From the sequence record MH359124: 64,000 nt of DNA. One strand, written 5' to 3'. The translations under genes were made by a program, and so were the position numbers. The stretch's first letter is position 1, and every line of letters starts with the position of its first letter. Source of the DNA: Escherichia phage SF. Positions 2,428 to 61,356 of this stretch are shown here, one piece after another. The notes under the pieces were generated by a model. That model was given only the letters and a program-made list of their open reading frames with translations, was not told the DNA's origin and did no database searches.

Positions 2428-2457
2428 GTTTACAACCACTAAAAACTGTGTTAAGAT
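2428..2457 (+). promoter_or_regulatory. T4 early-type promoter (GTTTAC -35, degenerate -10)
   Basis: GTTTAC then about 17-18 bp to TAAGAT; precedes ORF 2486. Confidence 0.4.
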
Positions 2458-2485
2458 ATTCTTACTTACTCAAGAGGAGAACAAT

Positions 2486-2713
2486 ATGTTAAATCGTTGG
2501 ATTAAACCTAATAACACATTAGGTGCTTTGATTGCTCAAGAAGTTTCGTTGAAATACGGTCTTGGATATTATGATGATGTAGTCGTACACTCGTTCATGA
2601 TGGATGGCGAAGACGTCAAATTTAATGCCGAAATCCGTTGGGACGATGGTGGTGTTCGTTTTGTTCGAGGAACAATTAATGCTTACGATGCTGAAGAAGT
2701 TGTTTGCTGTTAA
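2486..2713 (+). CDS. hypothetical protein
   Basis: ATG 2486 with GAGGAG SD (track ORF 2417 trimmed); 75 aa. Confidence 0.5.
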   Translation: MLNRWIKPNNTLGALIAQEVSLKYGLGYYDDVVVHSFMMDGEDVKFNAEIRWDDGGVRFVRGTINAYDAEEVVCC

Positions 2714-2726
2714 ACCAGGCGAAGGT

Positions 2727-2927
2727 ATGATGCCTATTCCTGATACACACGAAAAAAGTTGGGAATATATCGGTGACGGAATGATGGAAGAAGTTGTTCG
2801 TCCAAAAACAAAACAGGTTAATGCTTCAAGCTCTTCAAGTTATAATCATTCATACGTATCATCTTGGCCTGGTGATTCCGGGTCAAGTTATTCTGATTGT
2901 GGTTCAAGCTCAGGGAGCTGTGAATGA
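2727..2927 (+). CDS. hypothetical protein with Ser-rich low-complexity C-terminus
   Basis: ATG 2727 after GAAGG SD, immediately after the previous stop; 66 aa. Confidence 0.35.
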   Translation: MMPIPDTHEKSWEYIGDGMMEEVVRPKTKQVNASSSSSYNHSYVSSWPGDSGSSYSDCGSSSGSCE

Positions 2928-3103
2928 ACAGAATAGTAAAATGGTTTAAAAGCTGGAATGATGGAGTCGGACCAGAAGATTGGTTAGATGTTTTTGAAGA
3001 GAAAATGGTCAAAGAACTCCAGAAACATGAAGAGAAGCTCGTCGAAGATGAAGGCGAACGTATTGTAAAACTTTATATGGGTGAACCATCGAGGAAATTA
3101 TAA
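2924..3103 (+). CDS. hypothetical protein
   Basis: ATGA start/stop overlap with upstream ORF and TAATG overlap with downstream ORF, typical T4 gene packing; 59 aa. Confidence 0.35.
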   Translation: MNRIVKWFKSWNDGVGPEDWLDVFEEKMVKELQKHEEKLVEDEGERIVKLYMGEPSRKL

Positions 3104-3748: not shown

Positions 3749-3964
3749 AAGAGAAATTTAAAGAGAAATTCTTACTAGAAATCAAGGAAAAAGACTTTGA
3801 GACATGGTATCGAATGGTGAAAGGGTTGACATTGCTTTTTAAAGCATCCTTATTCATGTTAGAACAACCTGGTCCTGATGGACCTTTAGTAGGAAAGCTT
3901 AAAAAGTAGTTTACATTCCCTCCTCTCGTGTTATGATAGGCTTATCTTTAAATGGAGGTCTATC

Positions 3965-4546
3965 ATGACATGTCAATCTGAACTTCAAGAACGCGAATAC
4001 CTAACAAATCTGATTGATAGCAAATTCACCCGCCAAGAACAAAACATTCTCTGGGCTTGCACAGATTCTAAGGAAGACCCGGATTTCCACTATGAATTAG
4101 ACCATCTTGTTCGTAAGCATATGACTTCTACAGTACCAGTAGAACTCTACCGCGGTGTAACTCCAGAAGAAGTAGAACGTCTTTCCCTTCTTTCTGTTGG
4201 ATGTCATTGGTCTCCTGGACGAGTAACATCATTCACAACTGATTTCAGTACAGCTCGTCAATTCTCCGGGAGTTGGGAGTATCAGACGTACACTATTCTT
4301 AGTCTCAGGAATGCTCCATTCATTTTTGATTACTACCAAAACATGGTTAACATTGTACTTGCCGGAAAGAACCCTAAGCATGTTATGGAAGAAACACGTG
4401 TTGACGTCCTAGATATGATTGAATCTGAACAAGAGTACATGGTCTCAGGTATCTCTAGATTTGAGATTGTGGAAATTGAAGACTTAGAATATGACCCTTT
4501 ATCTCAGTTATACAAAATCATTCATTTAAAAATGTTGAATTTTTAG
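3965..4546 (+). CDS. modB: ADP-ribosyltransferase, ModB-like (R-S-E class)
   Basis: 193 aa; YRG (Arg), TSFTT (STS), ESEQEYM (catalytic Glu) motifs; paralog of next gene; position as in T4 modB-modA-srd-dda. Confidence 0.7.
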   Translation: MTCQSELQEREYLTNLIDSKFTRQEQNILWACTDSKEDPDFHYELDHLVRKHMTSTVPVELYRGVTPEEVERLSLLSVGCHWSPGRVTSFTTDFSTARQFSGSWEYQTYTILSLRNAPFIFDYYQNMVNIVLAGKNPKHVMEETRVDVLDMIESEQEYMVSGISRFEIVEIEDLEYDPLSQLYKIIHLKMLNF

Positions 4547-4576
4547 TGTACAAACTCTTCCGACGATGATACTATA
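4546..4576 (+). promoter_or_regulatory. early-type promoter (GTGTAC -35 / TACTAT -10)
   Basis: GTGTAC, about 18 bp spacer, TGATACTAT; upstream of modA-like ORF. Confidence 0.4.
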
Positions 4577-4603
4577 CTTTTATCAACCACAGGAGAAACC
4601 TAA

Positions 4604-5212: not shown

Positions 5213-5286
5213 CTGGATTGGAATAACCGGATGGAACTCAGAACCATTATAACACATAAAAAATTAAAGCATTTTACGAAAAAAGT

Positions 5287-5316
5287 GTGTACACTACCTG
5301 AGGGCATGATATTATA
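5287..5316 (+). promoter_or_regulatory. early-type promoter
   Basis: GTGTAC, 17 bp spacer, TGATATTAT, followed by the conserved TAGACCTATCA cassette. Confidence 0.45.
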
Positions 5317-5364
5317 GACCTATCAGCTAAATGACCTAACGTCCGTAAGACAGAGGAAAATATT

Positions 5365-6111: not shown

Positions 6112-6113
6112 TT

Positions 6114-7735: not shown

Positions 7736-7744
7736 GAGAAAATT

Positions 7745-8422: not shown

Positions 8423-8427
8423 AATCA

Positions 8428-8457
8428 GTTTACAACCAAGGACGGTTGGAGTATAAT
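8428..8457 (+). promoter_or_regulatory. early promoter (GTTTAC -35, TATAAT -10)
   Basis: GTTTAC, 18 bp, TATAAT; shares CCAAGGACGG(T/A)TGGAGTATAAT with promoter at 8986. Confidence 0.55.
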
Positions 8458-8488
8458 CTTTCTATCTTAACCAAACAGGAAAAACATT

Positions 8489-8983
8489 ATGAATATCAAT
8501 ACTACGGCTACTTACATCCTGAAAGACGAAAAACAAATCAACTGGTACGGTGCTTCAGTGCGAGCTTATGAAAAGTTTTGTGAAATTTTAGGTGCCACTC
8601 AAGGTAATAGTTTCACTATTGTTAACTTCATTAAACAAGCTGAAGGCCCTTGGTTATTCTTAGAAATTAAAAATTCATATGGTACAATTTCTACTACTGC
8701 CATTCCAAGCACCGACTTTGAACTCTTGATTGAAGAAGTAGAACCCGTTAAAGACATCTGTATTGATATGGATATCGCTTGTATGTACGGTACTCTGATT
8801 AAGCATATTGAGCCTACTGATTTATTGTGTAAATATGTTTCAATTCGACGCCCATTCGCTGGTCCAGTAAATGGATGGGTAACTGACCAATGGATTGAAG
8901 ACGGTGTTGAACTTCTGAACGTTGTTCACGCAAGTGATTTTAGTGTAGTTCCACGTAGTGCTGTGGTTAATATCCTTAATTAA
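8489..8983 (+). CDS. hypothetical protein, member 1 of a tandem paralog family
   Basis: 164 aa; C-terminal GWVTDQWIEDGVELLNVVHASDFSVVP matches the conserved C-terminus of the next two ORFs. Confidence 0.6.
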   Translation: MNINTTATYILKDEKQINWYGASVRAYEKFCEILGATQGNSFTIVNFIKQAEGPWLFLEIKNSYGTISTTAIPSTDFELLIEEVEPVKDICIDMDIACMYGTLIKHIEPTDLLCKYVSIRRPFAGPVNGWVTDQWIEDGVELLNVVHASDFSVVPRSAVVNILN

Positions 8984-8985
8984 TG

Positions 8986-9015
8986 TTGTACATCCAAGGA
9001 CGGATGGAGTATAAT
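8986..9015 (+). promoter_or_regulatory. early promoter (TTGTAC -35, TATAAT -10)
   Basis: Near-duplicate of the promoter at 8428. Confidence 0.5.
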
Positions 9016-9046
9016 GAATTCAATTTAACAAAGAGAGAGAGAAATT

Positions 9047-9502
9047 ATGATTACTATTGGTGAAATTAAGCGTGTATCAATTGCATCCCGGTCTAAAGCC
9101 GCAGGTCGTCTGGTTGAAGTTATCGGACTTCGCACAAATGGCATGGGACGTATTAAAGAAGTTAAAGTTCGAATCATTCCTAGTTTTGGACGTCAGGATA
9201 CTCAGTACGCTTACGTAAGTCCTAAATTCTTGGAAACTCCTGTGAGCGCTCATTTTGCTTCCACTGAACCTAATGTACAGTTCAAATGGGCCCTTTGCAA
9301 AGGCGTTGAATTCCAGACTGATAAAGAATTTGACTTCATCGATGAATACGGTTATCCAAGCAAAACTGATACTATGTGTGGCTTCATTAGTGACCAATGG
9401 GTTGAAGATGGTGAAAAGTTATACAATATCGTATTCTTAGGTGACTTCCGAGTTGTTAAAGAATCTGAAATCACTCGCTATGTGTCTCCTCGTAAAGCTT
9501 AA
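9047..9502 (+). CDS. hypothetical protein, paralog family member 2
   Basis: 151 aa; VSIASRSKAAGRLVEV N-terminus and GFISDQWVEDGEKLYNIVFLGDFRVV C-terminus shared with next ORF. Confidence 0.6.
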   Translation: MITIGEIKRVSIASRSKAAGRLVEVIGLRTNGMGRIKEVKVRIIPSFGRQDTQYAYVSPKFLETPVSAHFASTEPNVQFKWALCKGVEFQTDKEFDFIDEYGYPSKTDTMCGFISDQWVEDGEKLYNIVFLGDFRVVKESEITRYVSPRKA

Positions 9503-9935: not shown

Positions 9936-9986
9936 GTTTACTTCTCCTCTGGTTTTGATATTATAACCATATCAACCAGAGGAGAA
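9936..9986 (+). promoter_or_regulatory. early promoter embedded in a 13-bp perfect inverted repeat (PeSL-like cassette)
   Basis: GTTTAC at 9936; arms TTCTCCTCTGGTT (9942-9954) and AACCAGAGGAGAA (9974-9986) flank TGATATTATAA; right arm contains the SD of ORF 9991. Confidence 0.55.
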
Positions 9987-9990: not shown

Positions 9991-10515
9991 ATGTTAGTTT
10001 ACCGCGTAGAACGTAGTTTTTGTACTCAACGTGAATCATTACCAGGAATTGCTATCGAAGACGGTAAAGCCGTCAGAATTTGGGAAACCTCTTGGAATAA
10101 AGAACCTCGTTCGCCATACGGTTGGTCGGGCACCGACAACTCTGAAGAAACATGGGAGTTCCTTGATAAGCATGGAATACTCTCAGGTAACTTCTACCAT
10201 CATGGCGACAACTACAATGTCTCTAATCGTCCTACAGTAAATGAAGACAAACTCCTTGAACAAAATATCTTAAGATACTATAGAATTGAGCACACATTTG
10301 AATTGAGTGAAGATTGGGCTCAAGGGTTCTATTTTGGATTTGAAAGTGTTGACGCGGTTTATGCATGGTTTGATGACCAGGTGGATGTTGAACTCTTGAA
10401 AGCTAAAGGATACTACATAGCGGTCTATGAAGCACCTGATTTCATCCTCGGAAGTTGTCAATTAATGTTTAGACGTTCATTGGCAGAACAAGTTGATTTT
10501 ATTTTGCTAAAATGA
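9991..10515 (+). CDS. hypothetical protein
   Basis: 174 aa, ATG with GAGGAG SD. Confidence 0.55.
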   Translation: MLVYRVERSFCTQRESLPGIAIEDGKAVRIWETSWNKEPRSPYGWSGTDNSEETWEFLDKHGILSGNFYHHGDNYNVSNRPTVNEDKLLEQNILRYYRIEHTFELSEDWAQGFYFGFESVDAVYAWFDDQVDVELLKAKGYYIAVYEAPDFILGSCQLMFRRSLAEQVDFILLK

Positions 10516-10549
10516 TGTACAACAACTATGGTCTATGATACTATAGACC
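10515..10549 (+). promoter_or_regulatory. early promoter with stem-loop (GGTCTAT/ATAGACC)
   Basis: ATGTAC, 18 bp, TACTAT; 7-bp inverted repeat around the -10. Confidence 0.45.
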
Positions 10550-10572
10550 TATCAAAACAAGAGGAGAATATT

Positions 10573-11394: not shown

Positions 11395-11820
11395 ATGGCT
11401 TTTAAAGGTTTTGAAGTTGGTAAGAAATATCGTATTATCAAAGGACAGGAAGATAATTTCTTGAGAATTCTTAATACGACTGGTAAACGTCTTAATACTA
11501 ATCTGCATACTACTTTATTGTCCAAAGATTTTATTGTGGAAGAGATGATTGGTTACGGCGTTTCGGTTATTGCCGTAGAAGCCGTAGGCGATTATGGCCG
11601 AACTATTCATAGTATGCAAGGTGATATTCTGCTTTATGGTGCAGAATTTAAATTCTTTGAAGAAGTTCCGGAACCAGATACATCTGTCGATTTCAAAAAA
11701 GGCTCTGTAGAATTTGTTGACGGTTCGGTGATCGTATCAGGTGATGTGGTCATTACAGTTAAAAGTGAACAAGGGCGTTTGGCTGCAATTGATGCACTTC
11801 AGAAAATTAAATTTAAATAA
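11395..11820 (+). CDS. hypothetical protein (immediately upstream of gene 39)
   Basis: 141 aa ORF followed by a terminator. Confidence 0.5.
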   Translation: MAFKGFEVGKKYRIIKGQEDNFLRILNTTGKRLNTNLHTTLLSKDFIVEEMIGYGVSVIAVEAVGDYGRTIHSMQGDILLYGAEFKFFEEVPEPDTSVDFKKGSVEFVDGSVIVSGDVVITVKSEQGRLAAIDALQKIKFK

Positions 11821-11838
11821 GGGCTTCGGCCCTTTTTG
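11821..11838 (+). terminator. rho-independent terminator (GGGC-UUCG-GCCC + T5)
   Basis: gggcttcggccc followed by ttttt. Confidence 0.55.
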
Positions 11839-11883: not shown

Positions 11884-13701
11884 ATGATTAAAAATGAAAT
11901 TAAGGTATTGTCAGACGTAGAACATATTAAGAAACGTAGTGGCATGTATATTGGTTCTTCGGCCAAAGAAGCCCATGAGCGTTTTTTGTTTGGTAAATAT
12001 CAACAAGTTGAATATGTTCCTGGTCTGGTTAAATTAATCGATGAGATTATTGACAACTCGGTTGATGAAGCTATTCGTACATCATTTAAGTTTGCAAATA
12101 AAATTGATGTGCAAATTAAAAATAATCAAGTTTCGGTGGAAGATAACGGACGTGGTATTCCTCAAGGTTTAGTTACTGACCAAACAGGTGAACAAATTCC
12201 TGGGCCTGTAGCAGCCTGGACTATTCCAAAGGCTGGCGGTAACTTTGGTGATGACTCTGAACGTAAGACCGGTGGTATGAACGGCGTCGGGAGTAGTTTA
12301 ACTAATATCTTCTCTACGTTGTTTACAGGCATCACGTCAGATGGCGAAAATGAAATCACTGTTAACTGTTCAAACGGAATGGAAAACAAATCATGGTCTT
12401 CTAAGAAATCTAAAGGTAAAGGCACTAAAGTAATCTTCACTCCTGATTTCTCTTCATTTGAAGAGCATAATTTATCTCAAATTTATTTAGATATTACTTT
12501 AGACCGACTTCAAACATTGGCAGTCGTTTATCCTGATATCAAGTTCACATTTAATGGTAAAAAGGTTGATGGTAATTTTAAACGATTTGCTAAACAATTT
12601 GGCGAAGATAACATCATTCAAGAAAATGATAAAGTCTCTATAGCATTCACAACATCACCAGATGGCTTCCGTCATTTAACTTATGTGAATAACATCCATA
12701 CTAAAAATGGCGGTCATCACGTTGAATGTGTAATGGATGATATCTGCGAACATCTTTTGCCTGGTATTAAAAAGAAATATAAGGGTATTGAAGTCACTAA
12801 AGCTCGTGTTAAAGAATGTCTCACAATGTTGATGTTTATTAGAGACATGAGCAACATGCGTTTTGATTCTCAGACTAAAGAACGTTTAACGTCAACGTAT
12901 GGCGATATTCGTAATCATATCCAATTAGATACTAAGAAAATTGCTCAGGCACTTCTTAAAAACGAAGCCTTGATTATGCCTATTGTTGAAGCAGCATTAG
13001 CTCGTAAATTGGCAGCAGAAAAAGCTGCAGAAACTAAAGCAGCTAAAAAGGCAACTAAAGCTAAGGTTCATAAGCATATTAAAGCTAACCAATGTGGTAA
13101 AGATGCAGATACGACATTGTTTTTAACAGAAGGTGATTCTGCAATTGGTTATCTCATTGATGTTCGTGACCGTGAACTACACGGCGGATTTCCATTACGT
13201 GGTAAGGTGATGAATAGCTGGGGTATGTCATATGCTGATATGATGAAGAACAAAGAGCTCTTTGATATCTGTGCTATCACAGGTCTTATTCTTGGTGAAA
13301 AGGCAGAGAATACGAACTATCGTAATATTGCAATTATGACCGATGCCGATCATGACGGTCTTGGAAGTATTTATCCGGCTTTGCTTGCTTTCTTTAGTAA
13401 TTGGCCTGAATTGTTTGAACAAGGACGTATTCGCTTTGTTAAAACGCCTGTAATTATTGCACAAATTGGCAAAACTCAAAAATGGTTTTATACTGTAACT
13501 GAGTATGAAGAAGCTAAAGATACACTGCCTAAGCATAGTATTCGATACATCAAAGGATTGGGCTCCCTTGAAAAGTCAGAATATCGTGAAATGATTCAGA
13601 ACCCTGTGTACGACGTAGTTAAACTTCCTGAAAATTGGAAAGAACTCTTTGAAATGTTGTTGGGTGATGATTCAGAACTTCGTAAAGAATGGATGTCCTA
13701 A
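11884..13701 (+). CDS. 39: DNA topoisomerase II large subunit, undivided gp39+gp60
   Basis: 605 aa; N-terminal GHKL ATPase region matches recalled T4 gp39 and C-terminal part (IAIMTDADHDGLGSIYP...LRKEWMS) matches T4 gp60 in one continuous frame. Confidence 0.9.
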   Translation: MIKNEIKVLSDVEHIKKRSGMYIGSSAKEAHERFLFGKYQQVEYVPGLVKLIDEIIDNSVDEAIRTSFKFANKIDVQIKNNQVSVEDNGRGIPQGLVTDQTGEQIPGPVAAWTIPKAGGNFGDDSERKTGGMNGVGSSLTNIFSTLFTGITSDGENEITVNCSNGMENKSWSSKKSKGKGTKVIFTPDFSSFEEHNLSQIYLDITLDRLQTLAVVYPDIKFTFNGKKVDGNFKRFAKQFGEDNIIQENDKVSIAFTTSPDGFRHLTYVNNIHTKNGGHHVECVMDDICEHLLPGIKKKYKGIEVTKARVKECLTMLMFIRDMSNMRFDSQTKERLTSTYGDIRNHIQLDTKKIAQALLKNEALIMPIVEAALARKLAAEKAAETKAAKKATKAKVHKHIKANQCGKDADTTLFLTEGDSAIGYLIDVRDRELHGGFPLRGKVMNSWGMSYADMMKNKELFDICAITGLILGEKAENTNYRNIAIMTDADHDGLGSIYPALLAFFSNWPELFEQGRIRFVKTPVIIAQIGKTQKWFYTVTEYEEAKDTLPKHSIRYIKGLGSLEKSEYREMIQNPVYDVVKLPENWKELFEMLLGDDSELRKEWMS

Positions 13702-13725
13702 GCTCCTTCGGGAGCTTCATTTTAA
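13701..13725 (+). terminator. putative terminator hairpin after gene 39
   Basis: agctcc-ttcg-ggagct followed by a T-rich tract. Confidence 0.45.
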
Positions 13726-14860: not shown

Positions 14861-14911
14861 GGCACTATTACACATAAGATGATAGATTATATGGTCTTTA
14901 GTAATAGTGCC
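14861..14911 (+). promoter_or_regulatory. inverted-repeat cassette (11-bp arms) with -10-like element upstream of ORF 14937
   Basis: GGCACTATTAC (14861-14871) and GTAATAGTGCC (14901-14911) flank TAGATTATAT. Confidence 0.35.
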
Positions 14912-18313: not shown

Positions 18314-18337
18314 GGGGACTTCGGTCCCCTTTTTTCT
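18314..18337 (+). terminator. rho-independent terminator after rIIB
   Basis: ggggac-ttcg-gtcccc followed by T6. Confidence 0.6.
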
Positions 18338-19142: not shown

Positions 19143-19180
19143 GTTTACAACTAAGTAGGACTATGATACAGTAGTCCTAT
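19143..19180 (+). promoter_or_regulatory. early promoter with stem-loop (TAGGACTA/TAGTCCTA)
   Basis: GTTTAC at 19143; 8-bp inverted repeat around TGATACAG. Confidence 0.5.
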
Positions 19181-19198: not shown

Positions 19199-19462
19199 AT
19201 GAAATTTAAATTTTTCTACGCAAAACATAAAGTAACAGGCGAATTTGTTTCAATGTACAACACCGCAGATGATGAAGGGATGATTTATACCCATTTAGGC
19301 CTATCTCATTGGGACTCAGACGTGCCTTATATGTCATCTGAAGCCGAAATAACTCGTCTGGTTAATGGACATATGAACGACCATTTTAGTGTTATTCTTT
19401 CTAAAGACCTTAAAGAGGTTATCAACAAAGGATATATGGAACTCGCGGAAGTTGAGATATGA
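19199..19462 (+). CDS. hypothetical protein
   Basis: 87 aa; AAGAGGA SD. Confidence 0.5.
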   Translation: MKFKFFYAKHKVTGEFVSMYNTADDEGMIYTHLGLSHWDSDVPYMSSEAEITRLVNGHMNDHFSVILSKDLKEVINKGYMELAEVEI

Positions 19463-19651: not shown

Positions 19652-19690
19652 GTTTACAACACAGTAGGATTATGGTATAGTAGTCCTATC
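19652..19690 (+). promoter_or_regulatory. early promoter with imperfect stem-loop
   Basis: GTTTAC at 19652; TAGGATTATGGTATAGTAGTCCTATCAAAACA cassette. Confidence 0.45.
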
Positions 19691-19709: not shown

Positions 19710-19910
19710 ATGGCTAAGCTTTTTAAAGATGTTGAAATTGGTGAAAAATTTGTCCTGAATAATGGTCAGCAGCTTATTCGTGTAGCTTCTATAGCCGGAC
19801 AAACTCATAACTGCATAGCCCCAACGTGTTGGACCCGATTCTTTATTGAGGATGACACCGAATGTTTAACTGTTGAAGAGCTTTTTGAACGTTCTGATAT
19901 AACCGAATAA
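19710..19910 (+). CDS. hypothetical protein
   Basis: 66 aa, Cys-containing. Confidence 0.5.
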   Translation: MAKLFKDVEIGEKFVLNNGQQLIRVASIAGQTHNCIAPTCWTRFFIEDDTECLTVEELFERSDITE

Positions 19911-19912: not shown

Positions 19913-19948
19913 TTGTACAAACTCTTGAGAGCAGAGTATAATGCTCTC
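19913..19948 (+). promoter_or_regulatory. early promoter (TTGTAC -35, TATAAT -10) within GAGAGCA/TGCTCTC inverted repeat
   Basis: Homologous to the cassette at 48659. Confidence 0.5.
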
Positions 19949-19986
19949 ATGGATTACAAAAACATTAATCAATTGAGGAAATTAGC

Positions 19987-20433: not shown

Positions 20434-20486
20434 TTTATATAGGCCTATTAAGTTAGGCCTTTAATTTATTTTTGAGGTAATTAAAA

Positions 20487-22102: not shown

Positions 22103-22178
22103 GTGCCCTAGCCTTAGGATTTCTCGGTGCAATAGCTGCACTAGTGATTTGGCTGTATTGGTTGGACAAACATGATTA

Positions 22179-22199
22179 GGGAGCTTCGGCTCCCTTTTG
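22179..22199 (+). terminator. rho-independent terminator after gene 52
   Basis: gggagc-ttcg-gctccc followed by T4. Confidence 0.55.
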
Positions 22200-22221: not shown

Positions 22222-22250
22222 GTTTACTTTTGCTTCAAACATGATATTAT
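22222..22250 (+). promoter_or_regulatory. early promoter, copy A of a duplicated cassette of about 75 bp
   Basis: GTTTAC, 17 bp, TATTAT; cassette AGTTTACTTTTGCTTCAAAC.TGATATTATAGACCTATCAAAACAAA...TTGGAGAAATAAAATGTCTAAA. Confidence 0.5.
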
Positions 22251-22289
22251 AGACCTATCAAAACAAAACAACCAAATTGGAGAAATAAA

Positions 22290-22505
22290 ATGTCTAAAAT
22301 GAAATTAACCCAAAACACAACTACTCGTTTCGGTAAAGTTAAACCTGGTATGAATGCTCCCCGTAAAGCACTTGTTGAAGAATTAAATTTCTTAGAAGTT
22401 GAAATCAATTCTTTAGTGGTTCGCGGTTCAAATGGACATCATTTAGAAAAGCTTCGTTCTAAAAAGGCAAAACTTATTGGCCTTATTAAAGAAATGAGTT
22501 TGTAA
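22290..22505 (+). CDS. hypothetical protein
   Basis: 71 aa, basic; begins MSK like the following motA. Confidence 0.5.
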   Translation: MSKMKLTQNTTTRFGKVKPGMNAPRKALVEELNFLEVEINSLVVRGSNGHHLEKLRSKKAKLIGLIKEMSL

Positions 22506-22543: not shown

Positions 22544-22572
22544 GTTTACTTTTGCTTCAAACGTGATATTAT
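22544..22572 (+). promoter_or_regulatory. early promoter, copy B of the duplicated cassette
   Basis: About 90 percent identical to the cassette at 22222; precedes motA. Confidence 0.5.
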
Positions 22573-22609
22573 AGACCTATCAAAACAAATACTAATTTGG
22601 AGAAATAAA

Positions 22610-24906: not shown

Positions 24907-25103
24907 TCTTCAGAACGTAGTAGAGGCAGAACGTGAGCGTGAGGCTTTAGTCTATAATGAACTATTAGCCACGTTCTTGGCCTTACACTCATACGAACAG
25001 GAAGACTACACTGATTACGTTAAAAGTGTAGAAAAAGCTGTTTACAATCATCATTGTTAATGGTACTATACTCGTATCAACCAAATGGAATGAATAAAAC
25101 GGT

Positions 25104-35919: not shown

Positions 35920-35997
35920 AATGAGTAAAAGACTATTTACGCTTTCGAACTAGTATGTTACTATGATCTAAGTTGACTAACTGAACAAGAGGTTCAT

Positions 35998-39181: not shown

Positions 39182-39204
39182 GGGAGACTTCGGTCTCCCT
39201 TTTG
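39182..39204 (+). terminator. rho-independent terminator after gene 32
   Basis: gggagac-ttcg-gtctccc + TTTT; identical hairpin recurs at 54283. Confidence 0.6.
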
Positions 39205-39230: not shown

Positions 39231-39260
39231 GTTTACTTCTTCCCTAGATGTGATATTATA
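39231..39260 (+). promoter_or_regulatory. early promoter
   Basis: GTTTAC, 17 bp, TGATATTAT. Confidence 0.5.
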
Positions 39261-39288
39261 GTTCTATCAACAACATGAGGAAATCAAA

Positions 39289-39681
39289 ATGGAAATCGGA
39301 AAATCTTATATCATTAACCCTTTGTTTAAAGACGACTTTGTTCAAGAAGCGCCACACAATAACGCTAAGATGTTAAAATTGATTGAACTCCATGGGCCTA
39401 GTTTTGTTGTAAACGGAATGGAACCTGATTATGATAGCGATACGCCAAACGTAGTAAGTGTAACTATGGAAGACGGTACTGTATGTTCTGCCGCTGGTGA
39501 AATTGAAACTTATTTTGAGATTTATTATGATGAGTTCAAATACTTTACTGAGGTAGATTTAGTAAAGTCTCAACCTACTAACAAAGGTATAGCTTTAGGT
39601 GTAACAAAAATACATTGTATCGTAGATGAAACCAACGTCGACGAAATCATCAAACTTTTGCAAAAAACTTTTAAAAAGTAG
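39289..39681 (+). CDS. hypothetical protein (32-frd interval)
   Basis: 130 aa. Confidence 0.5.
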   Translation: MEIGKSYIINPLFKDDFVQEAPHNNAKMLKLIELHGPSFVVNGMEPDYDSDTPNVVSVTMEDGTVCSAAGEIETYFEIYYDEFKYFTEVDLVKSQPTNKGIALGVTKIHCIVDETNVDEIIKLLQKTFKK

Positions 39682-39718
39682 TTTATAACAAGATAGGGCT
39701 ATGTTATAGTAGCCCTAT
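39681..39718 (+). promoter_or_regulatory. early promoter with stem-loop (TAGGGCTA/TAGCCCTA)
   Basis: GTTTAT -35-like; 8-bp inverted repeat around the -10. Confidence 0.45.
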
Positions 39719-39744
39719 CAAATAAAAGTAAAGAGGAGAATAAA

Positions 39745-40927
<1,183 letters not shown>

Positions 40928-40942
40928 TTATATAGGTGTTAA

Positions 40943-42058: not shown

Positions 42059-42145
42059 CGCTTCAGTTTAAAAGTGTATAATAAATTAACGGGATAAATA
42101 CTATCCCGTTTGGAGTAATGTCTATCAACCTATACTGAGGAATAT

Positions 42146-45637: not shown

Positions 45638-45656
45638 GGGACTTCGGTCCCACTTT
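45638..45656 (+). terminator. putative hairpin after nrdB
   Basis: gggac-ttcg-gtccc followed by a weak T-tract. Confidence 0.35.
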
Positions 45657-45659: not shown

Positions 45660-46070
45660 ATGAAAGATATTGCCGCCGAATATTCCTTTATTAAATATAC
45701 AGAATTGGAGCTATTAGAAGATGCAACAATTAAAACAGTTGATGTCCCTAATAAGAAAAATGTCATATACGCTATTGCTATAGATGACGAGCTTGTGTAT
45801 ATTGGTAAAACCAAGAATTTAAAGAAACGCATTAACTATTATCGAACAGCCATAAATCGAAAAGACCAGACTTCAGATTCAAGAAAATCACTTATGATTT
45901 TGGATGCCTTAATGCAAGGCAAAAAGGTTGAATTCTGGGCCCGCCAATGTTTTGACCTTTCAGTCACCAACGAACTTGGTTCAATGACTATCGCAACAAT
46001 GGACCTTGAAGAACCGCTTTTTATCAAAAAGTTCAACCCGCCTTGGAATATCCAACATAAGAAAAAGTAG
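45660..46070 (+). CDS. denA: endonuclease II (GIY-YIG family)
   Basis: 136 aa; YSFIKYTELEL, VIYAIAIDDELVYIGKTKNLKKRINYYRTAINRKD, C-terminal PLFIKKFNPPWNIQHKKK, closely matching recalled T4 DenA. Confidence 0.9.
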   Translation: MKDIAAEYSFIKYTELELLEDATIKTVDVPNKKNVIYAIAIDDELVYIGKTKNLKKRINYYRTAINRKDQTSDSRKSLMILDALMQGKKVEFWARQCFDLSVTNELGSMTIATMDLEEPLFIKKFNPPWNIQHKKK

Positions 46071-46099
46071 TTTACACGCCACAAGGATTGTGGTACAAT
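46070..46099 (+). promoter_or_regulatory. early promoter (GTTTAC / TACAAT)
   Basis: GTTTAC, 18 bp with CCACAA/TTGTGG inverted repeat, then TACAAT. Confidence 0.45.
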
Positions 46100-46116
46100 T
46101 TAAAAAAACTAACTGA

Positions 46117-47252: not shown

Positions 47253-47285
47253 GTTTACAAACACCAAGGAAGGTGTTACTATGGT
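47253..47285 (+). promoter_or_regulatory. early promoter with AACACC/GGTGTT stem
   Basis: GTTTAC, then inverted repeat around TACTAT-like -10. Confidence 0.4.
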
Positions 47286-47312
47286 TTTTATCAACATCAC
47301 GAGGAGAAAATT

Positions 47313-48444: not shown

Positions 48445-48659
48445 CTAAAGAACAGCATGAATACCTTAAAGGACTTATCTATGACTCTGAAATGGCGGCC
48501 ATGATTTACGGGCGACAGATTCAACGATTAGAATCTTTGCCTCCGACTAATGACCGCTTGTTAGTTCAGTCTCGTGCTAATCTGAAAAATGAATATCAGA
48601 ATAAGTGGGCGGTAGCGACTAAAGCTCTTCATGAGTATATTGAATCTTTAGTAAAATAG
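48435..48659 (+). CDS. hypothetical protein
   Basis: 74 aa. Confidence 0.45.
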   Translation: MSMTKEQHEYLKGLIYDSEMAAMIYGRQIQRLESLPPTNDRLLVQSRANLKNEYQNKWAVATKALHEYIESLVK

Positions 48660-48694
48660 TTTACAAACTCTCGGGAGCAGAGTATAATGCTCCT
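48659..48694 (+). promoter_or_regulatory. early promoter (GTTTAC / TATAAT) within GGAGCA/TGCTCC inverted repeat
   Basis: Homologous copy of the cassette at 19913. Confidence 0.5.
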
Positions 48695-48716
48695 ATGGAT
48701 AATTGAGGAAATCTAA

Positions 48717-49015
48717 ATGAAAACATTACTAGAGAATTACATCAAACGGTCTGATGAGTATATTGATATCTGTCGTGGAATGTCACTTGCCAATTATGAC
48801 AAAGATGCAGCAAAGGCACTAGATGAAGCAGGTAAAGCTCTTCGTAAAGCGGCTAAAGAAAAAGGGTTGGATTTACAACAACTCAAAAGTCATATGATTA
48901 AATTTATTTCTTCAAACGTTAGAAGTAAGTCAATTAATAAAAACGTTGCTGAAATTAATAAAGACCGTCGCGAGCATAACATTCGTATTCTTGAAACTTT
49001 CTTAGGAATAAAATA

Positions 49016-49016
<1 letters not shown>
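48717..49016 (+). CDS. hypothetical protein
   Basis: 99 aa. Confidence 0.45.
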
Positions 49017-50782: not shown

Positions 50783-50820
50783 GTTTACAACACCGTAGAG
50801 TTGTGATACTATAACTCTAC
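50783..50820 (+). promoter_or_regulatory. early promoter with stem-loop (GTAGAGTT/AACTCTAC)
   Basis: GTTTAC at 50783; 8-bp inverted repeat around TGATACTAT. Confidence 0.5.
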
Positions 50821-51077: not shown

Positions 51078-51197
51078 TGAGAGCTATCTCATTACTATCG
51101 AGAATGGTCATAAATCTGAGCACTACCAACTTAGCCTGTCTAATCCGGTTAAAGGTATTGTTGAATCAGAATCTGTTTATATCTCCTAAGGATTGTT

Positions 51198-52190
51198 ATG
51201 TTACCTGTCGTCAGAAAACTTATTTCTCCAAAAGAACTGGCTGAGATTATTCCTTTGTCGGAAGCTTACGCATCACAAGTGGCTTCTCATCGCGAACAAG
51301 TTAATTCGATTATGAACGGTGAAGACCCACGCAAACTTATTGTTGTAGGTCCTTGTTCAATTCATGACCCTATTGCTGCTGTTGAATACGGCAAACGTCT
51401 GGCTGAACTTCAAACTCGTCTTCCTAATGTTCTGTTAGTGATGCGCGTTTATTTTGAAAAGCCTCGAACTACCGTAGGTTGGAAAGGTCTTGTAAATGAT
51501 CCATATCTTGACGGAAGTTTTGATATGAACCACGGTCTTATAGTTGCACGAACATTGTGTCGTAAACTTCTACGTATGGGACTTCCATTAGCAACTGAAG
51601 TATTAGACCCATTCACGATTAAGTATCTTTCTGGTATTTTCTCATGGGTTGCTATTGGCGCCCGTACGACTGAAAGTCAGACACATCGTGAAATTGCTTC
51701 AGGTCTACCGATGTGCGTAGGCTTCAAGAACGCAACCAATGGTTCTATTAAAGTAGCTACAGACGCGATGTATAGTGCCGCCTGGCCTCATCGGTATATG
51801 GGTATGGACGTCGATGGTACTGTAGGCATTGTTGAAGCTGAAGGTAATCAGAATACGCATATCGTATTGCGTGGCGGGACTAACGGCCCGAACTATCATT
51901 CTTCTGATATTCAAGAAGCTTCTAACAAAGCAAGTGCATTAGGTCTGAATCATTATGTAATGGTTGACTGTAGCCATGCAAACGCTGATGGGTATTATAG
52001 CAATCAAATTGGTATTGGTAAAAATTTAGCAGCTAATGATTTGGTCAAAGGAATTATGATAGAATCATTCCTACATGAAGGAAATCAAAAAATTTCTGAT
52101 AATATGTCCTATGGCGTTTCCATTACCGATGCGTGCATCAGTTGGGAACAAACTAAAGAGCTGTTAACTTATATTAATAAGGTTCAATAA
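51198..52190 (+). CDS. 3-deoxy-D-arabino-heptulosonate-7-phosphate (DAHP) synthase, class I (AroG/AroF-like)
   Basis: 330 aa; VVGPCSIHDP, VMRVYFEKPRTTVGWKGL, AIGARTTESQTHRE, DCSHAN, IMIESFLHEGNQ, SITDACISWE match the E. coli AroG catalytic/metal-binding regions; N-terminus shorter than AroG. Confidence 0.85.
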   Translation: MLPVVRKLISPKELAEIIPLSEAYASQVASHREQVNSIMNGEDPRKLIVVGPCSIHDPIAAVEYGKRLAELQTRLPNVLLVMRVYFEKPRTTVGWKGLVNDPYLDGSFDMNHGLIVARTLCRKLLRMGLPLATEVLDPFTIKYLSGIFSWVAIGARTTESQTHREIASGLPMCVGFKNATNGSIKVATDAMYSAAWPHRYMGMDVDGTVGIVEAEGNQNTHIVLRGGTNGPNYHSSDIQEASNKASALGLNHYVMVDCSHANADGYYSNQIGIGKNLAANDLVKGIMIESFLHEGNQKISDNMSYGVSITDACISWEQTKELLTYINKVQ

Positions 52191-53069: not shown

Positions 53070-53126
53070 TATGCTTTACGAATAGTATGGTATTATTAAT
53101 CTATCGTCAAACAACAAGGAAATAAG

Positions 53127-54276: not shown

Positions 54277-54282
54277 TTTTAG

Positions 54283-54304
54283 GGAGACTTCGGTCTCCCT
54301 TTTG
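54283..54304 (+). terminator. rho-independent terminator
   Basis: gggagac-ttcg-gtctccc + TTTT, identical to the hairpin at 39182. Confidence 0.55.
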
Positions 54305-54335
54305 TGTGTTTAGGGCAGAAAAAGTTTAAAAAGAT

Positions 54336-54365
54336 GTTTACTCTCCTATAGGATGTGTTACTATA
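54336..54365 (+). promoter_or_regulatory. early promoter
   Basis: GTTTAC, then GTTACTATAGAC cassette. Confidence 0.45.
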
Positions 54366-54405
54366 GACTTGTACCACCTAATCAATAAAACAACCGGAGA
54401 ATAAA

Positions 54406-54777
54406 ATGAACACTATCAATTTAAATGCTACAGTTAAATGCCATGACCATGATGGATATAAATCTCAAGTTGTTAACGAGTTACAGTGGATGGTTCGTTC
54501 AGTTCAAGGTGATGTAGTTTATTGTACAACTCCTGATGGCCCTTCAGACGATTTTTGTTATCATATCGAAATCGAAAACTTTTTCACTGGTGAAATTTAC
54601 CGTCTGAATTCTACAGTTTATGGTTGTATTCGTTCTAAAACTTACGAAGACGAAGAGACTGGTTACTCTGAAGATGTTGTATGGTACGAAAATGCCAGAA
54701 ATCGCGCAGAGGCATTAATCGAGAAGATTAAAGCAAAAGGTGTTATTGATTCAGCTAAGTGGACAAAAATCAAATAA
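54406..54777 (+). CDS. hypothetical protein
   Basis: 123 aa, Cys/His-containing. Confidence 0.5.
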   Translation: MNTINLNATVKCHDHDGYKSQVVNELQWMVRSVQGDVVYCTTPDGPSDDFCYHIEIENFFTGEIYRLNSTVYGCIRSKTYEDEETGYSEDVVWYENARNRAEALIEKIKAKGVIDSAKWTKIK

Positions 54778-54781
54778 AAAT

Positions 54782-54821
54782 GTTTACTTTGGTACAGGTT
54801 TTGTTATTATAGACCTGTACC
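54782..54821 (+). promoter_or_regulatory. early promoter with 9-bp stem (GGTACAGGT/ACCTGTACC)
   Basis: GTTTAC at 54782; inverted repeat around TTGTTATTATAG. Confidence 0.5.
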
Positions 54822-54851
54822 AACAAACAACTTAAACATCTGGAGAATAAA

Positions 54852-55217
54852 ATGAACTACATCAACTTTGAACGCAAATATGTTTCTAACGGTATCGCCG
54901 GTTCTATTGATACGATTTGCTTATGGAAACATAAAAATGGTTCAGTATGTGAAATTGAGCAGTATATGACTCCTAATTACGTTTATATGCGATTTGAAAA
55001 TGGCATCACGGTTTCAATCACAATGGACGGTTCCAACTTCAAAATTGCATTAGATGACGATTTCCGTCAACGTGATTTAGGTACTCATCCTTGCTGGAAT
55101 GGTGATAATCGTAAACTTCTGGTTAAAACTTGGATTCGTCATATCCTGAGTAACCGAGCTAAACCTGAACATCTCGAAGCAATCTTTGATGTAGTTCTTA
55201 ACGAATTCGATATCTAA
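54852..55217 (+). CDS. hypothetical protein
   Basis: 121 aa. Confidence 0.5.
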   Translation: MNYINFERKYVSNGIAGSIDTICLWKHKNGSVCEIEQYMTPNYVYMRFENGITVSITMDGSNFKIALDDDFRQRDLGTHPCWNGDNRKLLVKTWIRHILSNRAKPEHLEAIFDVVLNEFDI

Positions 55218-55740: not shown

Positions 55741-55741
55741 T

Positions 55742-57223: not shown

Positions 57224-57232
57224 GGGTTAATT

Positions 57233-58992: not shown

Positions 58993-59180
58993 TGAAAGCT
59001 TATTTAGAAACAGTAGTTGTCACTAATAAAGACGGTAGTGATGTTTCCACCTCTTGTTCACAAATTGTATTAGATTTTCCTAATAACGATTCCTATCATA
59101 TTTTTATGGACAATTTTGATATGTACGAAAAAGGCCCTAATTTTGAAGTTTATCGTACTTTGCTCCCTATTGTGGATTAA
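58992..59180 (+). CDS. hypothetical protein
   Basis: Start moved to ATG 58992 overlapping ligase stop; 62 aa. Confidence 0.4.
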   Translation: MKAYLETVVVTNKDGSDVSTSCSQIVLDFPNNDSYHIFMDNFDMYEKGPNFEVYRTLLPIVD

Positions 59181-59204
59181 GAGCCTTCGGGCTCTTTTTT
59201 TTTG
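59181..59204 (+). terminator. rho-independent terminator
   Basis: gagcc-ttcg-ggctc + T9. Confidence 0.6.
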
Positions 59205-59239
59205 GCATAAATATAAATTATTACTAAAAGGAAAACACT

Positions 59240-61327
59240 ATGTCTGAACAATTAAATGAAGTGTTTGAATCTGAAGGCAGTCTTCCTGTCGTCAATTTGA
59301 ACCCTAAAGCTAAAGTTCCACAAGTCTGGAAGATTGGTGATATTGATACAAACATCGTAGTTCGCTTATTCTCTTACCTTTCTGAAGGCGATGCTGTAAA
59401 ACAAGTTAAACTTGGCGACAAATACGCTCATGTTGTTATTATGAGTCTGTCTGAAAAGGGTAATCTCGCTGAATTGAAAAATGGCCTTGGTCCTGCTCCT
59501 ATTGATGCAATCAACACCATTTTCAATACAGTATATGAACAAGTTAAAGCTCTTCGTATGGATGCAGTTCTGTTCCGATTCCCTACCAAGAAATTGAAAG
59601 GACGTGGACAGCAACTTCAAACTCTTCTTGCTCGTTTAGTTTCTACTAAAACCGGTGGCCGTTTTAAAGTATTGTCGGCAATGTATCAATTCACAGGTAA
59701 ACACACCTATGTGATGATGGTTCGTAAAAATGCTAACATTGAAGATATTAAAGGCATCCCTAACATTAACACAGAGTTGTACACGAAAGTAGATTCTGAT
59801 GTTGGCGAAGTTTATGTGAGTAAAAAGACTGGCGAAAAGGTCACCAAAGAAACGGCTATCGCTGGTTCTATTGCTGCGGTAGAAGAAAAACGTAAAGATA
59901 AGCCTGTTATTGCTCGTACTAAAATTTCTCGTCGTGCTATTGCAGCAAGTCAATCTTTAGAAGCTGACCGTCAAGAAGGTGAGTTATTCCAGAAATACGA
60001 AAATTCTGCTAAAGAAGTTAGCGGCCCAGCTACAGCCGAATTACTTCCTGAAGCATATGAAATCGTACTAGCCCAAGCATCGTCCACAGCAAAAGGCACT
60101 TTAGTTGCTGATATCGAAAATAAGATTTATAATCGCATTGATGAATCCTTTAGATTTGCTGATGAAGTTTCTTATGGTGGTGTTATTAAACCAACTTTAG
60201 AAAAGTTTGCTAAGAAAATTAAAACTGAAAAAACAACATCTGTTAAAGCATTAGCTGCTTTTGTTGAAGCTGCAAATGAAATTGCAGACTCTATTAAAGA
60301 CGAATGGTTTGAAGATTTTAGACGTGATAATTTCCAACTGGCCGACGACGTTTTAGCTGAAGTATCTGAAAAAACTTGGAAACAACGCAAATCAGCGTTC
60401 TTGTCTAATGTGATGTATACTTATGCACGAGAATCGGCTAGAGGCACCTTTAATATAACAATGAATCGGGACCCTAAACAATACTCTGTTGCTGAAAAAC
60501 GAGCTATTCGTGAATATGCCTCTTCTGCGTATACCGATATCAATAATATGTTGTTAGGTCGTTATAAACCAGATTTTTACGATGTTGCAGATGAAGATGA
60601 AGTTAAACGCGCTATTGATGGTCTTGATTCGGCGTTTTTAAATGGAGACCGTTTACCTGAAGGACTAACGTTATATAGAGCTCAGTCTATCAGAATGCCT
60701 ATTTACGAAGCAATGGTTAAAAATAAGGTATTCTACTTCAGAAACTATGTTTCCACTTCACTAGCTCCTATTATTTTCGGTGGGTTTAAAGAGAACGTTG
60801 CCCTTGGACTTGCTCCTGAAGAAGTTCGCAAAGAGCTTAACATTGATAATAACGACGAAGGTGTTACTATTTCTCCTAGTCAAGTAAGAACAGCTATGCA
60901 TGCACCAGAACAAATCCGTGTTAACGTCGGATGGGCTATTGATGGCGCCCATAAAGTTAACGTGATTTATCCTGGACAGTTGAGTAATCACCCTAACGAG
61001 CAAGAAATTATTTTGCCTAGAGGCATTCTCTTGCAGATAAATAAAATTACAGATGCGTCATCTGACACTGGTGCAGGTTTAGAATCCAACCTTAAATTTA
61101 TTCAAGCTGAAGTCATGTCCTCAGACCAGTTGGACGAAGCTGTCATTTACGATGGTGATGTTCTCATGGAAACAGGCGAGGTGGTTGCTATGACGGGTGA
61201 AATCGAATCGGATGAGCCGGTATCGTTCTCTTCATTTGTAGAAAAAACTAGTGCACCTAAAGGTTTGAAATTGTTAGCATCTTTAATGGATTTAGAATCA
61301 GTTCCGTTTAAATTTGTCCAAGGATAG
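59240..61327 (+). CDS. alt: ADP-ribosyltransferase Alt (virion-packaged)
   Basis: 695 aa; C-terminal third colinear with recalled T4 Alt (YEAMVKN.VFYFRNFVSTSL, ILPRG, KITDAS, LIQAEVM, VIYDGD.LMETGE, KFVQG). Confidence 0.9.
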   Translation: MSEQLNEVFESEGSLPVVNLNPKAKVPQVWKIGDIDTNIVVRLFSYLSEGDAVKQVKLGDKYAHVVIMSLSEKGNLAELKNGLGPAPIDAINTIFNTVYEQVKALRMDAVLFRFPTKKLKGRGQQLQTLLARLVSTKTGGRFKVLSAMYQFTGKHTYVMMVRKNANIEDIKGIPNINTELYTKVDSDVGEVYVSKKTGEKVTKETAIAGSIAAVEEKRKDKPVIARTKISRRAIAASQSLEADRQEGELFQKYENSAKEVSGPATAELLPEAYEIVLAQASSTAKGTLVADIENKIYNRIDESFRFADEVSYGGVIKPTLEKFAKKIKTEKTTSVKALAAFVEAANEIADSIKDEWFEDFRRDNFQLADDVLAEVSEKTWKQRKSAFLSNVMYTYARESARGTFNITMNRDPKQYSVAEKRAIREYASSAYTDINNMLLGRYKPDFYDVADEDEVKRAIDGLDSAFLNGDRLPEGLTLYRAQSIRMPIYEAMVKNKVFYFRNYVSTSLAPIIFGGFKENVALGLAPEEVRKELNIDNNDEGVTISPSQVRTAMHAPEQIRVNVGWAIDGAHKVNVIYPGQLSNHPNEQEIILPRGILLQINKITDASSDTGAGLESNLKFIQAEVMSSDQLDEAVIYDGDVLMETGEVVAMTGEIESDEPVSFSSFVEKTSAPKGLKLLASLMDLESVPFKFVQG

Positions 61328-61356
61328 TTTACAAACACATGGATGTGTGATACTAT
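61327..61356 (+). promoter_or_regulatory. early promoter with CACATG/ATGTGTG stem
   Basis: GTTTAC at 61327, TGATACTAT -10, downstream ATCAACAACATGAGGAAA as in the cassette at 39260. Confidence 0.45.

Follow-up and report, generated by a model that had tools for sequence, protein, structure and literature searches.

The 64,000 nucleotide stretch of Escherichia phage SF analyzed here (sequence record MH359124, referred to throughout as the window) carries a series of early promoters, at several of which an inverted repeat surrounds the -10 hexamer, and this arrangement raises the question of which nucleic acid the repeat acts in. An initial annotation, made from the sequence alone, assigned the hairpin to the 5′ leader of the mRNA that the promoter itself produces. 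We find 24 promoters of the T4 early type in the window, about nine of which are probably composite promoter/stem-loop cassettes of the promoter-early stem-loop (PeSL) type, with a hairpin that would form only in read-through RNA and would act there. This interpretation is drawn from sequence comparisons, and the evidence for it, together with the alternatives, is set out below.

Early promoters with internal hairpins

All 24 promoters lie on the + strand. Inspection and alignment of the intergenic regions reveal a common layout consisting of an A-rich tract (aaaaagt), GTTTAC, a spacer of 17–18 nt that closes with TGn, then TAYWAT and a discriminator of 6 nt, with ATCAA where transcription is expected to begin, and the promoters are of the published T4 early type with its UP, -35, TGn and -10 components. 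A weight matrix was built from the -35 block and the TGn/-10 block only, leaving out the positions occupied by hairpin arms, and was trained on 23 of the 24 window sites; at a cut-off of at least 16 bits it reports 24 sites on the + strand of the window and none on the - strand, compared with a mean of 0.17 in first-order Markov simulations of the window. Independent support comes from 46 other loci from T4-like phages, where there are 160 matches on the + strand and none on the - strand, so that the 47 sources scanned contain 184 and 0 respectively. Related loci were found with Ndd as the query (3 loci) and with Cd as the query (42 loci, the basis of the comparative work); 153 unique promoters from T4-like phages entered the statistics given below, and 148 entered the analysis of symmetry axes. 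A scan with a generic sigma-70 consensus is uninformative (70 sites, with 62 expected), and only the matrix specific for T4 early promoters separates signal from noise. The initial annotation had proposed a genome-wide early promoter family, which these counts bear out, and the first and last sites (2428 and 61327–61356) match the span it gave.

Hairpins were scored against a swap control that retains the promoter consensus, in which the spacer of one promoter is paired with the downstream part of an unrelated promoter. Nine of the 24 promoters have a hairpin that is significant by this measure, eight belonging to what we call class 1, in which the arms flank the start of the -10, and one to class 2, in which the right arm contains the Shine-Dalgarno (SD) sequence. 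Over the window as a whole the scores of own pairs exceed those of swapped pairs (p = 4e-4), and seven to nine promoters stand out. The nine sites are as follows.

9936..9986 (+): class 2; -35 at 9936–9941, TGa, -10 (TATTAT) at 9959–9964, 17 nt spacer, predicted start at about 9971; 13 perfect pairs between the left arm TTCTCCTCTGGTT (9942–9954, within the spacer) and the right arm AACCAGAGGAGAA (9974–9986), which holds the SD (GGAG) of the motB.2 homolog, with its ATG at 9991; ΔG -23.7 kcal/mol, z -7.0
10515..10551 (+): class 1, cef promoter; ATGTAC, -10 at 10539–10544; arms GGTCTATG (10530–10537) and TATAGACC (10542–10549)
19143..19180 (+): class 1, promoter of the open reading frame (ORF) at 19199–19462; arms GTAGGACTAT (19155–19164) and GTAGTCCTAT (19171–19180); predicted start 19179
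19652..19689 (+): class 1, promoter of ORF 19710–19910; arms at 19664–19673 and 19680–19689 with one U:G pair; paralog of 19143 and 39681
19913..19949 (+): class 1, ndd promoter; TTGTAC; arms TGAGAGCA (19926–19933) and TGCTCTCA (19942–19949)
39681..39719 (+): class 1, frd.1 promoter; GTTTAT; arms GATAGGGCTAT (39692–39702) and GTAGCCCTATC (39709–39719); ΔG -18.7 kcal/mol, z -7.0
48659..48695 (+): class 1, promoter of ORF 48717–49016; arms GGGAGCA (48673–48679) and TGCTCCT (48688–48694)
50783..50820 (+): class 1, cd.2 promoter; arms GTAGAGTTGTG (50795–50805) and TATAACTCTAC (50810–50820)
54782..54823 (+): class 1, gene 30.7 promoter; arms TTGGTACAGGTTT (54789–54801) and AGACCTGTACCAA (54811–54823); ΔG -18.3 kcal/mol, z -4.8

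All seven hairpins named in the initial annotation are among these, within 1–3 nt of the positions it reported, and 10515 is an additional site of the same type that it did not list. The homologies it noted also hold, between 19913 and 48659, and among the group sharing TAGACCTATCAAAACAA, which comprises 10515, 22222 and 22544. Its estimate of at least 20 promoters with a repeat across the -10 is correct for the promoters but not for the repeats, only nine of which rise above the swap controls. RNA folding, which it had suggested as a check, makes the same division: the hairpin sites fold at -9.5 to -23.7 kcal/mol (z -2.4 to -7.0), whereas the promoters without a hairpin give -1 to -6 kcal/mol with z near 0.

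The excess of long stems is larger in the broader set of 153 promoters. Class 1 stems of at least 8 pairs are present at 45 promoters where swaps predict 3.5, and class 2 stems of at least 9 pairs at 29 where swaps predict 2.2, an excess of 10–13 fold for either class; stems of 5 pairs occur at 78 of the 153, with 53 expected. Their geometry is as follows. First, when the symmetry axes of stems of at least 6 pairs are plotted, with positions numbered from the -10 hexamer's first base, 40 of 148 promoters fall on a single sharp peak, against a typical 2–8 on other axes. This peak corresponds to the class 1 geometry, in which the left arm stops at -16, tgnTAyaa forms the loop, and the right arm extends from -7 to a median end of +3 (interquartile range +1 to +6, with some reaching +7). 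Second, another group of axes corresponds to class 2, with an anti-SD left arm in the spacer and a right arm from about +3 to +17, and 28 of 29 class 2 right arms contain an SD-like motif. Third, the same registers recur across many unrelated arm sequences.

Comparison of orthologous promoters shows that pairing is retained while the arms change. Among 19 orthologs of the cd.2 promoter, chosen by position only, 17 have a class 1 hairpin, built from four or five unrelated arm sequences. In their gap-free alignment 88.7% of cells are paired, compared with 25–55% when the partners are slid out of register; seven of the ten pairs have changed on both sides, and the real score is not attained by any of 500 shuffles. 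A class 2 orthologous family gives a similar picture, in which 97% of cells are paired and both sides have changed in 4 of 14 pairs. A pooled class 1 alignment shows double changes at nine of ten pairs, although these sequences were pre-selected for stems and the figure is illustrative only. As judged from these alignments, it is pairing that selection maintains, and not sequence. The different arms from site to site, in a constant register, also rule out an operator for a dimeric DNA-binding protein.

Read-through RNA and upstream terminators

In every significant case the left arm falls within the spacer, at -29 to -16, and precedes the -10. That arm is therefore not transcribed from the promoter, whatever the exact start, and the hairpin can form only in RNA started further upstream, or in DNA. 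With class 1 right arms ending at a median of +3, the promoter's own transcript includes at most a few nucleotides of one arm. This geometry contradicts the placement of the hairpin in the 5′ leader of the same promoter's mRNA, where it had been proposed that it could tune translation or stability. The SD does indeed lie in the right arm at 9936, and some class 1 right arms extend to +6 or +7, but the promoters' own 5′ untranslated regions (UTRs) span only 20–43 nt from the predicted start to the ATG and are A/C-rich sequences such as AUCAACAA followed by the SD, and we regard a leader hairpin as hardly credible.

The distribution of terminators provides a second line of evidence. Internal hairpins are found at 3 of 23 promoters that follow a terminator and at 78 of 130 that do not (Fisher p = 3e-5), and the contrast persists at the level of 53 sequence clusters (1 of 9 versus 23 of 44, p = 0.03). 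In the window a terminator with a UUCG loop is located just upstream of four promoters (2428, 22222, 39231 and 54336). One of these, 54336, is a paralog of 54782 that retains the right-arm-like sequence and lacks the complementary left arm, and of the two it is the copy preceded by a terminator. The promoter at 35935 is the only one at a divergent junction, where read-through is impossible, and has no hairpin. The mutual exclusion with terminators, the absence of a hairpin at 54336, and the situation at 35935 all fit a role on RNA arriving from upstream. The promoters without a significant hairpin at the -10 are listed here.

2428..2464 (+): -35 at 2428–2433, -10 at 2452–2457, predicted start at about 2464; no internal hairpin; UUCG terminator at 2391–2412 upstream
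3909..3958 (+): modB homolog promoter, -10 at 3932–3937; a 5-pair anti-SD/SD match at chance level, CCTCC (3919–3923) with GGAGG (3954–3958)
4546..4582 (+): modA homolog promoter, GTGTAC, -10 at 4570–4575; hairpin not significant
5287..5322 (+): srd homolog promoter; hairpin not significant
8428..8464 (+): upstream of ORF 8489–8983; only a 4-pair stem in the spacer (CCAA..TTGG); paralog of 8986
8986..9022 (+): TTGTAC, upstream of ORF 9047–9502; spacer stem shifted by one pair relative to 8428
22222..22257 (+): promoter of ORF 22290–22505; no hairpin; UUCG terminator at 22178–22195 upstream
22544..22579 (+): motA promoter; internal hairpin not significant; paralog of 22222
25040..25076 (+): asiA promoter; hairpin not significant
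35935..35971 (+): rnh promoter, at a divergent junction with no co-directional upstream gene; no hairpin
39231..39266 (+): frd.2 promoter; hairpin not significant; UUCG terminator at 39182–39199 upstream
46070..46106 (+): rnlA promoter; hairpin wholly in the spacer, CCACAA (46079–46084) with TTGTGG (46088–46093)
47253..47289 (+): alc promoter; spacer hairpin ACACC (47261–47265) with GGTGT (47272–47276); positional orthologs in other T4-like phages have class 2 hairpins
54336..54371 (+): gene 30.8 promoter; UUCG terminator at 54281–54300 upstream
61327..61363 (+): alt.-3 promoter; small spacer hairpin ACACA (61335–61339) with TGTGT (61344–61348)

About eight of the 24 promoters have no significant stem-loop in any position. 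T4-style terminators, with a GC stem, a UUCG tetraloop and a T-run, are present on the + strand at 2391–2412, 11819–11834, 13700–13717, 18314–18329, 22178–22195, 39182–39199, 45638–45651, 54281–54300 and 59179–59196. The intergenic listing also shows that stop codons abut or overlap the -35 at 10515, 39681, 46070, 48659, 50783 and 61327.

We favor the following model. Each cassette contains a strong promoter of the T4 early type, with the UP-like A-tract, GTTTAC, TGn and TAYWAT, and in about nine cassettes an RNA hairpin would be encoded in the variable parts of the promoter, namely the spacer's 3′ half and the discriminator or initial transcribed region. In class 2 (9936, motB.2) the SD would be masked in read-through RNA and free in RNA started at about 9971, between the arms, such that translation would be confined to transcripts from the gene's own early promoter; we infer this masking by analogy with T4 e, soc, 49 and I-TevI. 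In class 1 the hairpin sequence is placed between the upstream stop codon and the downstream SD, and would substitute for the missing terminator at tight junctions. Class 1 is most likely an attenuator, a 3′-end or processing barrier, or an insulator of polycistronic early RNA, and it may work by attenuating transcription, by blocking exonucleases, by directing processing, or by hindering the loading of ribosomes. The sense RNA is presumably the strand that matters.

A number of observations weigh against this interpretation or soften it. Start sites are predictions from the position of the -10, which for the nine hairpin sites put the initiating A at about 9971, 10551, 19179, 19688, 19949, 39717, 48695, 50819 and 54817, and the orthologs in the statistics are partly dependent on one another. 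The fixed register could arise partly because compact junctions leave room for variation only in the spacer and the discriminator. Hairpins are not significant at the packed junctions 4546, 8428 and 8986. Class 1 hairpins are followed by AUCAAAAC, with no U-run, and more generally the sequence after class 1 stems is ATCAAAAC or CAACAAA. Finally, a comparison of G:U with A:C mismatches does not distinguish the selected strand: the counts are 31 and 19 overall and 15 and 15 as distinct events, and under stricter criteria they are 5:0 in class 1 and 2:6 in class 2. Partition-function estimates of SD accessibility in own and read-through transcripts are too noisy to be informative, as they are dominated by pairing with the coding region. 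A canonical intrinsic terminator is ruled out for either class by the lack of a 3′ U-run on the + strand, and a terminator scan of that strand flags the UUCG hairpins and none of the class 1 stems.

A broader proposal, which we offer tentatively and consider somewhat doubtful, is that early promoters across the T-even phages serve as a transcript-origin filter, in which the untranscribed spacer encodes one arm of the hairpin. The same gene may then be read differently according to the origin of its mRNA, at the gene's own promoter or further upstream. At class 2 sites translation may be silenced on delayed-early or middle read-through RNA, limiting MotB.2-like proteins to the first minutes of infection, and at class 1 sites the ends of cistrons may be marked or insulated within long early RNAs without a canonical terminator. 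No description of such a filter at early promoters was found in the searchable literature. If true, hairpins confined to read-through RNA would help to explain how dozens of strong promoters are packed head-to-tail without uncontrolled spill into the next gene, and how some early proteins may be restricted to a very short time window. In the annotation of T4-like therapeutic phages the stem-loops would be treated as features of the upstream transcript and not as leaders, and engineered insertions beside such promoters would be expected to alter the expression of neighboring genes. The discovery is a modest one that will not surprise specialists, though it is worth a short experimental test.

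The genomic setting is that of an RB69-like T4-type phage of the genus Mosigvirus, as determined by Megablast, with 98% identity to Escherichia phage PHB12 over 9–14 kb and 95.6% identity to RB69 over 36–61 kb. The orientation of the window is the reverse of the usual T4 map, and the early genes run along the + strand as gp61 ... modB/modA, srd, dda, dexA, the motB group, cef, gp39, rIIA/B, ndd, gp52, motA and asiA; beyond a tail-fibre block on the - strand are rnh ... gp32, frd, td, nrdA/B, rnlA, alc, pseT, cd, gp31, gp30 and alt. Neither promoters nor start sites are annotated in the T4 RefSeq record, a literature search for start and termination sites mapped in T4 returned nothing usable, and an Rfam scan of the window gave no matches and no family corresponding to these elements.

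Several other repeats and promoter-like sequences were noted in the window, all on the + strand. Upstream of gene 31 (53070–53126) the sequence resembles a middle promoter with a MotA box (taTGCTTTAc, 12 nt, TATTAT) and not an early one. The gap of 92 nt that precedes rIIA.1 holds an 11-bp inverted repeat, GGCACTATTAC ... GTAATAGTGCC (14861–14910), which encloses a loop of about 29 nt holding TGaTAGATT, an extended -10 lookalike, and may be another promoter within a hairpin, of a non-early type. Upstream of nrdA a 10-pair hairpin, AACGGGATA..TATCCCGTT (42088–42110), begins a few nucleotides past a TATAAT at about 42076–42081, and would lie at the 5′ end of its promoter's own transcript, unlike the early-promoter hairpins. 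Two intergenic gaps without promoters, 234–272 and 20434–20485, contain short GC hairpins (GGCCTT..AAGGCC and AGGCCT..AGGCCT), an indication that stem-loops between cistrons may be common to the early operons of this phage in general.

Alternative explanations and gene indels

The hairpins might be a by-product of the promoter consensus, without selected structure. Within the consensus TTACA can pair with TGTGA and, by means of G:U pairs, TGTG with TATA, and stems of 5–6 pairs exceed the swap controls only about 1.5 to 3 fold; chance best accounts for the weak stems at 2428, 3909, 22222, 22544, 25040 and 35935. For the nine strong sites it is contradicted by the more than tenfold excess of stems of at least 8–9 pairs over consensus-preserving swaps and by the maintenance of pairing through multiple compensatory changes, and as a general account it is very improbable. 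Equally improbable is a role as terminators of antisense transcription, in which, on the - strand, a T-rich tract complementary to the A-rich upstream element comes after each hairpin. A simple scan does flag the 39681 hairpin on the - strand, with TTGTTATAAA next to it, but the T-rich tract mostly starts 5–15 nt past the stem and not directly after it, the - strand has no promoter-like sites of the family, and the location of the SD in class 2 right arms makes sense for the sense strand specifically. The repeats might instead act in DNA, by extruding from supercoiled or single-stranded phage DNA to give a cruciform or a hairpin that modulates the promoter or is a target for nucleases or recombination (e.g. 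endonuclease VII). Arbiol et al. (PMC2839356) report that PeSL stem-loops block a sequencing polymerase on single-stranded template unless betaine is present, and that recombination crossovers lie within or adjoining these stem-loops, and the strand-asymmetry counts given above are compatible with selection at the level of DNA. However, G:T pairs, which are mismatches in DNA, are frequent in the stems (at the closing pair in 13 of 15, for example, and at several interior positions), the SD in 28 of 29 class 2 right arms is sensible only at the RNA level, and the anticorrelation with upstream terminators points to a role tied to incoming transcription; we consider a DNA element improbable.

The remaining alternative is that these are mainly recombination cassettes, as in the 'modular shuffling' model of PeSLs, providing portable homology for gene swaps with little role for the stem-loop in expression. 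Comparison of the window with PHB12, RB69, AV110, SQ17 and IMG/VR relatives does place some indel or replacement junctions at promoters (39266; 54410/54718; 22298; 25104). In RB69 and AV110 a 256-bp cassette, ORF245c, is inserted exactly at the start-site motif of the frd.2 promoter 39231 (RB69 locus L048, 4775–5050, against window 39266–39273), with ATCAACAAATGAG, the 5′ UTR consensus, as a direct repeat at each end. The promoters 54336 and 54782, which flank gene 30.8, are about 80% identical over 83 bp (54329–54411 and 54775–54857), and the gene 30.8 allele is exchanged exactly between them in AV110 and in IMG/VR locus L005; in loci L002 and L004 a replacement starts directly after promoter 22222. 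The same promoter cassette, GTTTACAAACTCT..GGGAGCAGAGTATAATGCTCC, precedes ndd and ORF 48717 in the window and motB in T4. The homology used in these exchanges is nonetheless the shared promoter and 5′ UTR consensus and not the hairpin arms, which are specific to each site and offer no homology between sites, and recombination alone does not explain compensatory changes that keep pairing at orthologous sites. Many indels lie away from promoters (40584–40940, 41491, 51086–52187 and 37504), involving homing endonucleases, the td intron, the DAHP synthase gene (51086–52187) and the ORF between frd and td (40584–40940). The association of indels with promoters is only suggestive because viable indels must respect gene boundaries, and junctions there are expected in any case as only such indels survive selection. 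We thus regard recombination as an unlikely principal role. The earlier suggestion that the repeats supply microhomology for recombination holds loosely for the shared consensus, as at ORF245c, but not for the site-unique arms.

Some of the indels are of interest in themselves. PHB12 is missing 503 bp inside the modB homolog, with a 5-bp microhomology at the junction, deleting modB and leaving the flanking promoters intact; this deletion (4008–4512) was considered as a promoter-bounded event and rejected, since each endpoint is inside the modB ORF. Between cd.2 and cd a 330-aa ORF at 51198–52190 (+) matches Pfam DAHP_synth_1 (E = 1.7e-74), and corresponds to the shikimate-pathway DAHP synthase; it is present in AV110 and SQ17 and not in RB69 (a 1100-bp indel), and the matrix finds no early promoter of its own. 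Between frd and td a 115-aa ORF at 40580–40927 (+) is missing from RB69, AV110 and SQ17 (a 355-bp indel with an 8-bp overlap at the junction), and has no Pfam match and no adjoining early promoter.

Comparison with known promoter and stem-loop elements

The label 'PeSL-like' used in the initial annotation is an apt one. PeSLs were described in RB49 and phi1 as an early promoter combined with a stem-loop (Arbiol et al. 2010, PMC2839356), with five positional subclasses, upstream of the promoter, overlapping the -35, in the spacer, overlapping the -10 or shortly before the start, of which those in the spacer or overlapping the -10 are the commonest; in RB49 the PeSL211/210 stem-loop lowers expression of a downstream reporter, and mini-circles form between neighboring PeSLs (PMC2839356). 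The window elements share the intergenic cassette, in which an AT-rich tract leads into a strong early promoter with a stem-loop, followed by an SD and an ATG. The promoter is present at 24 + strand sites aligned as aaaaagt-GTTTAC-N17/18-(tgn)TAYWAT, the elements lie between the upstream stop codon and the downstream SD and ATG, and a stem-loop accompanies the nine significant sites, the four with upstream UUCG terminators, and three with spacer hairpins. Eighteen RB49 junctions read directly include the spacer type and several in which the left arm occupies the 3′ part of the spacer, the loop takes in the beginning of the -10, and the right arm extends to about +1, which is the class 1 layout of the window, and in both groups some elements may be associated with gene indels between close relatives. 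They differ in that the -35 is GTTTAC here and TTGACA there, and in that the stems here are mixed and more AT-rich, unlike the poly-G/poly-C stems of RB49 and phi1. With neither the -35 nor the stems matching between the 18 RB49 junctions and the window sites, homology is not supported; the architecture is the same, and the relationship is that of an analog rather than a homolog, which is also how Arbiol et al. describe the T-even elements (PMC2839356). None of the 18 RB49 junctions has a class 2 arrangement with the SD in the right arm.

The PeSLs of PST and T4 and the elements of the T-even IP locus belong to the same phage subfamily and have the same promoter consensus, TTTACW N17 TAYWAT (Comeau et al. 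2014, PMC4122927; Repoila et al. 1994, cited in PMC2839356). Comeau et al. place the PST/T4 stem-loop 'just upstream of the promoter' (PMC4122927), a description that suits the terminator-preceded promoters 2428, 22222, 39231 and 54336, in contrast to the nine window stem-loops that surround the -10 or reach the SD. The promoters themselves do not differ from the T4 early promoters, described as 'uber' UP/-35/TGn/-10 promoters (PMC2988021), and have the same A-rich UP-like region, GTTTAC, TGn, near-consensus -10 and conserved positions at +1 (ATCAA); stem-loops inside promoters are not discussed in the accessible passages of that review.

For class 2 the instructive parallel is with T4 e, soc, 49 and I-TevI, in which long transcripts fold the SD into a helix, and a promoter inside the 5′-arm region gives a shorter, translatable transcript (PMC3014915). 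The site at 9936 appears to share this SD-masking logic, with the SD in a 13-pair helix and a predicted start between the two arms. The internal promoter of the T4 genes is a late one (TATAAATA), which delays expression, whereas that at 9936 is of the early sigma-70 type (GTTTAC, 17 nt, TGa, TATTAT), and the predicted timing is the opposite, with translation only from immediate-early transcripts.

T4 itself contains both classes, with a class 2 hairpin at the motB.2 promoter (-23.7 kcal/mol; T4 position about 8218) and a class 1 hairpin at the motB promoter (about 7215), and the cef promoter (about 6630) also has a hairpin; the motB hairpin is a homolog of those of the 19913/48659 family in which a G:C pair has been exchanged for C:G. 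The PeSL element class and the logic of SD masking are already published, and the same structures are present in T4. What is added here is the fixed register of the hairpins, an SD-masking class at early promoters, and the mutual exclusion of hairpins and terminators.

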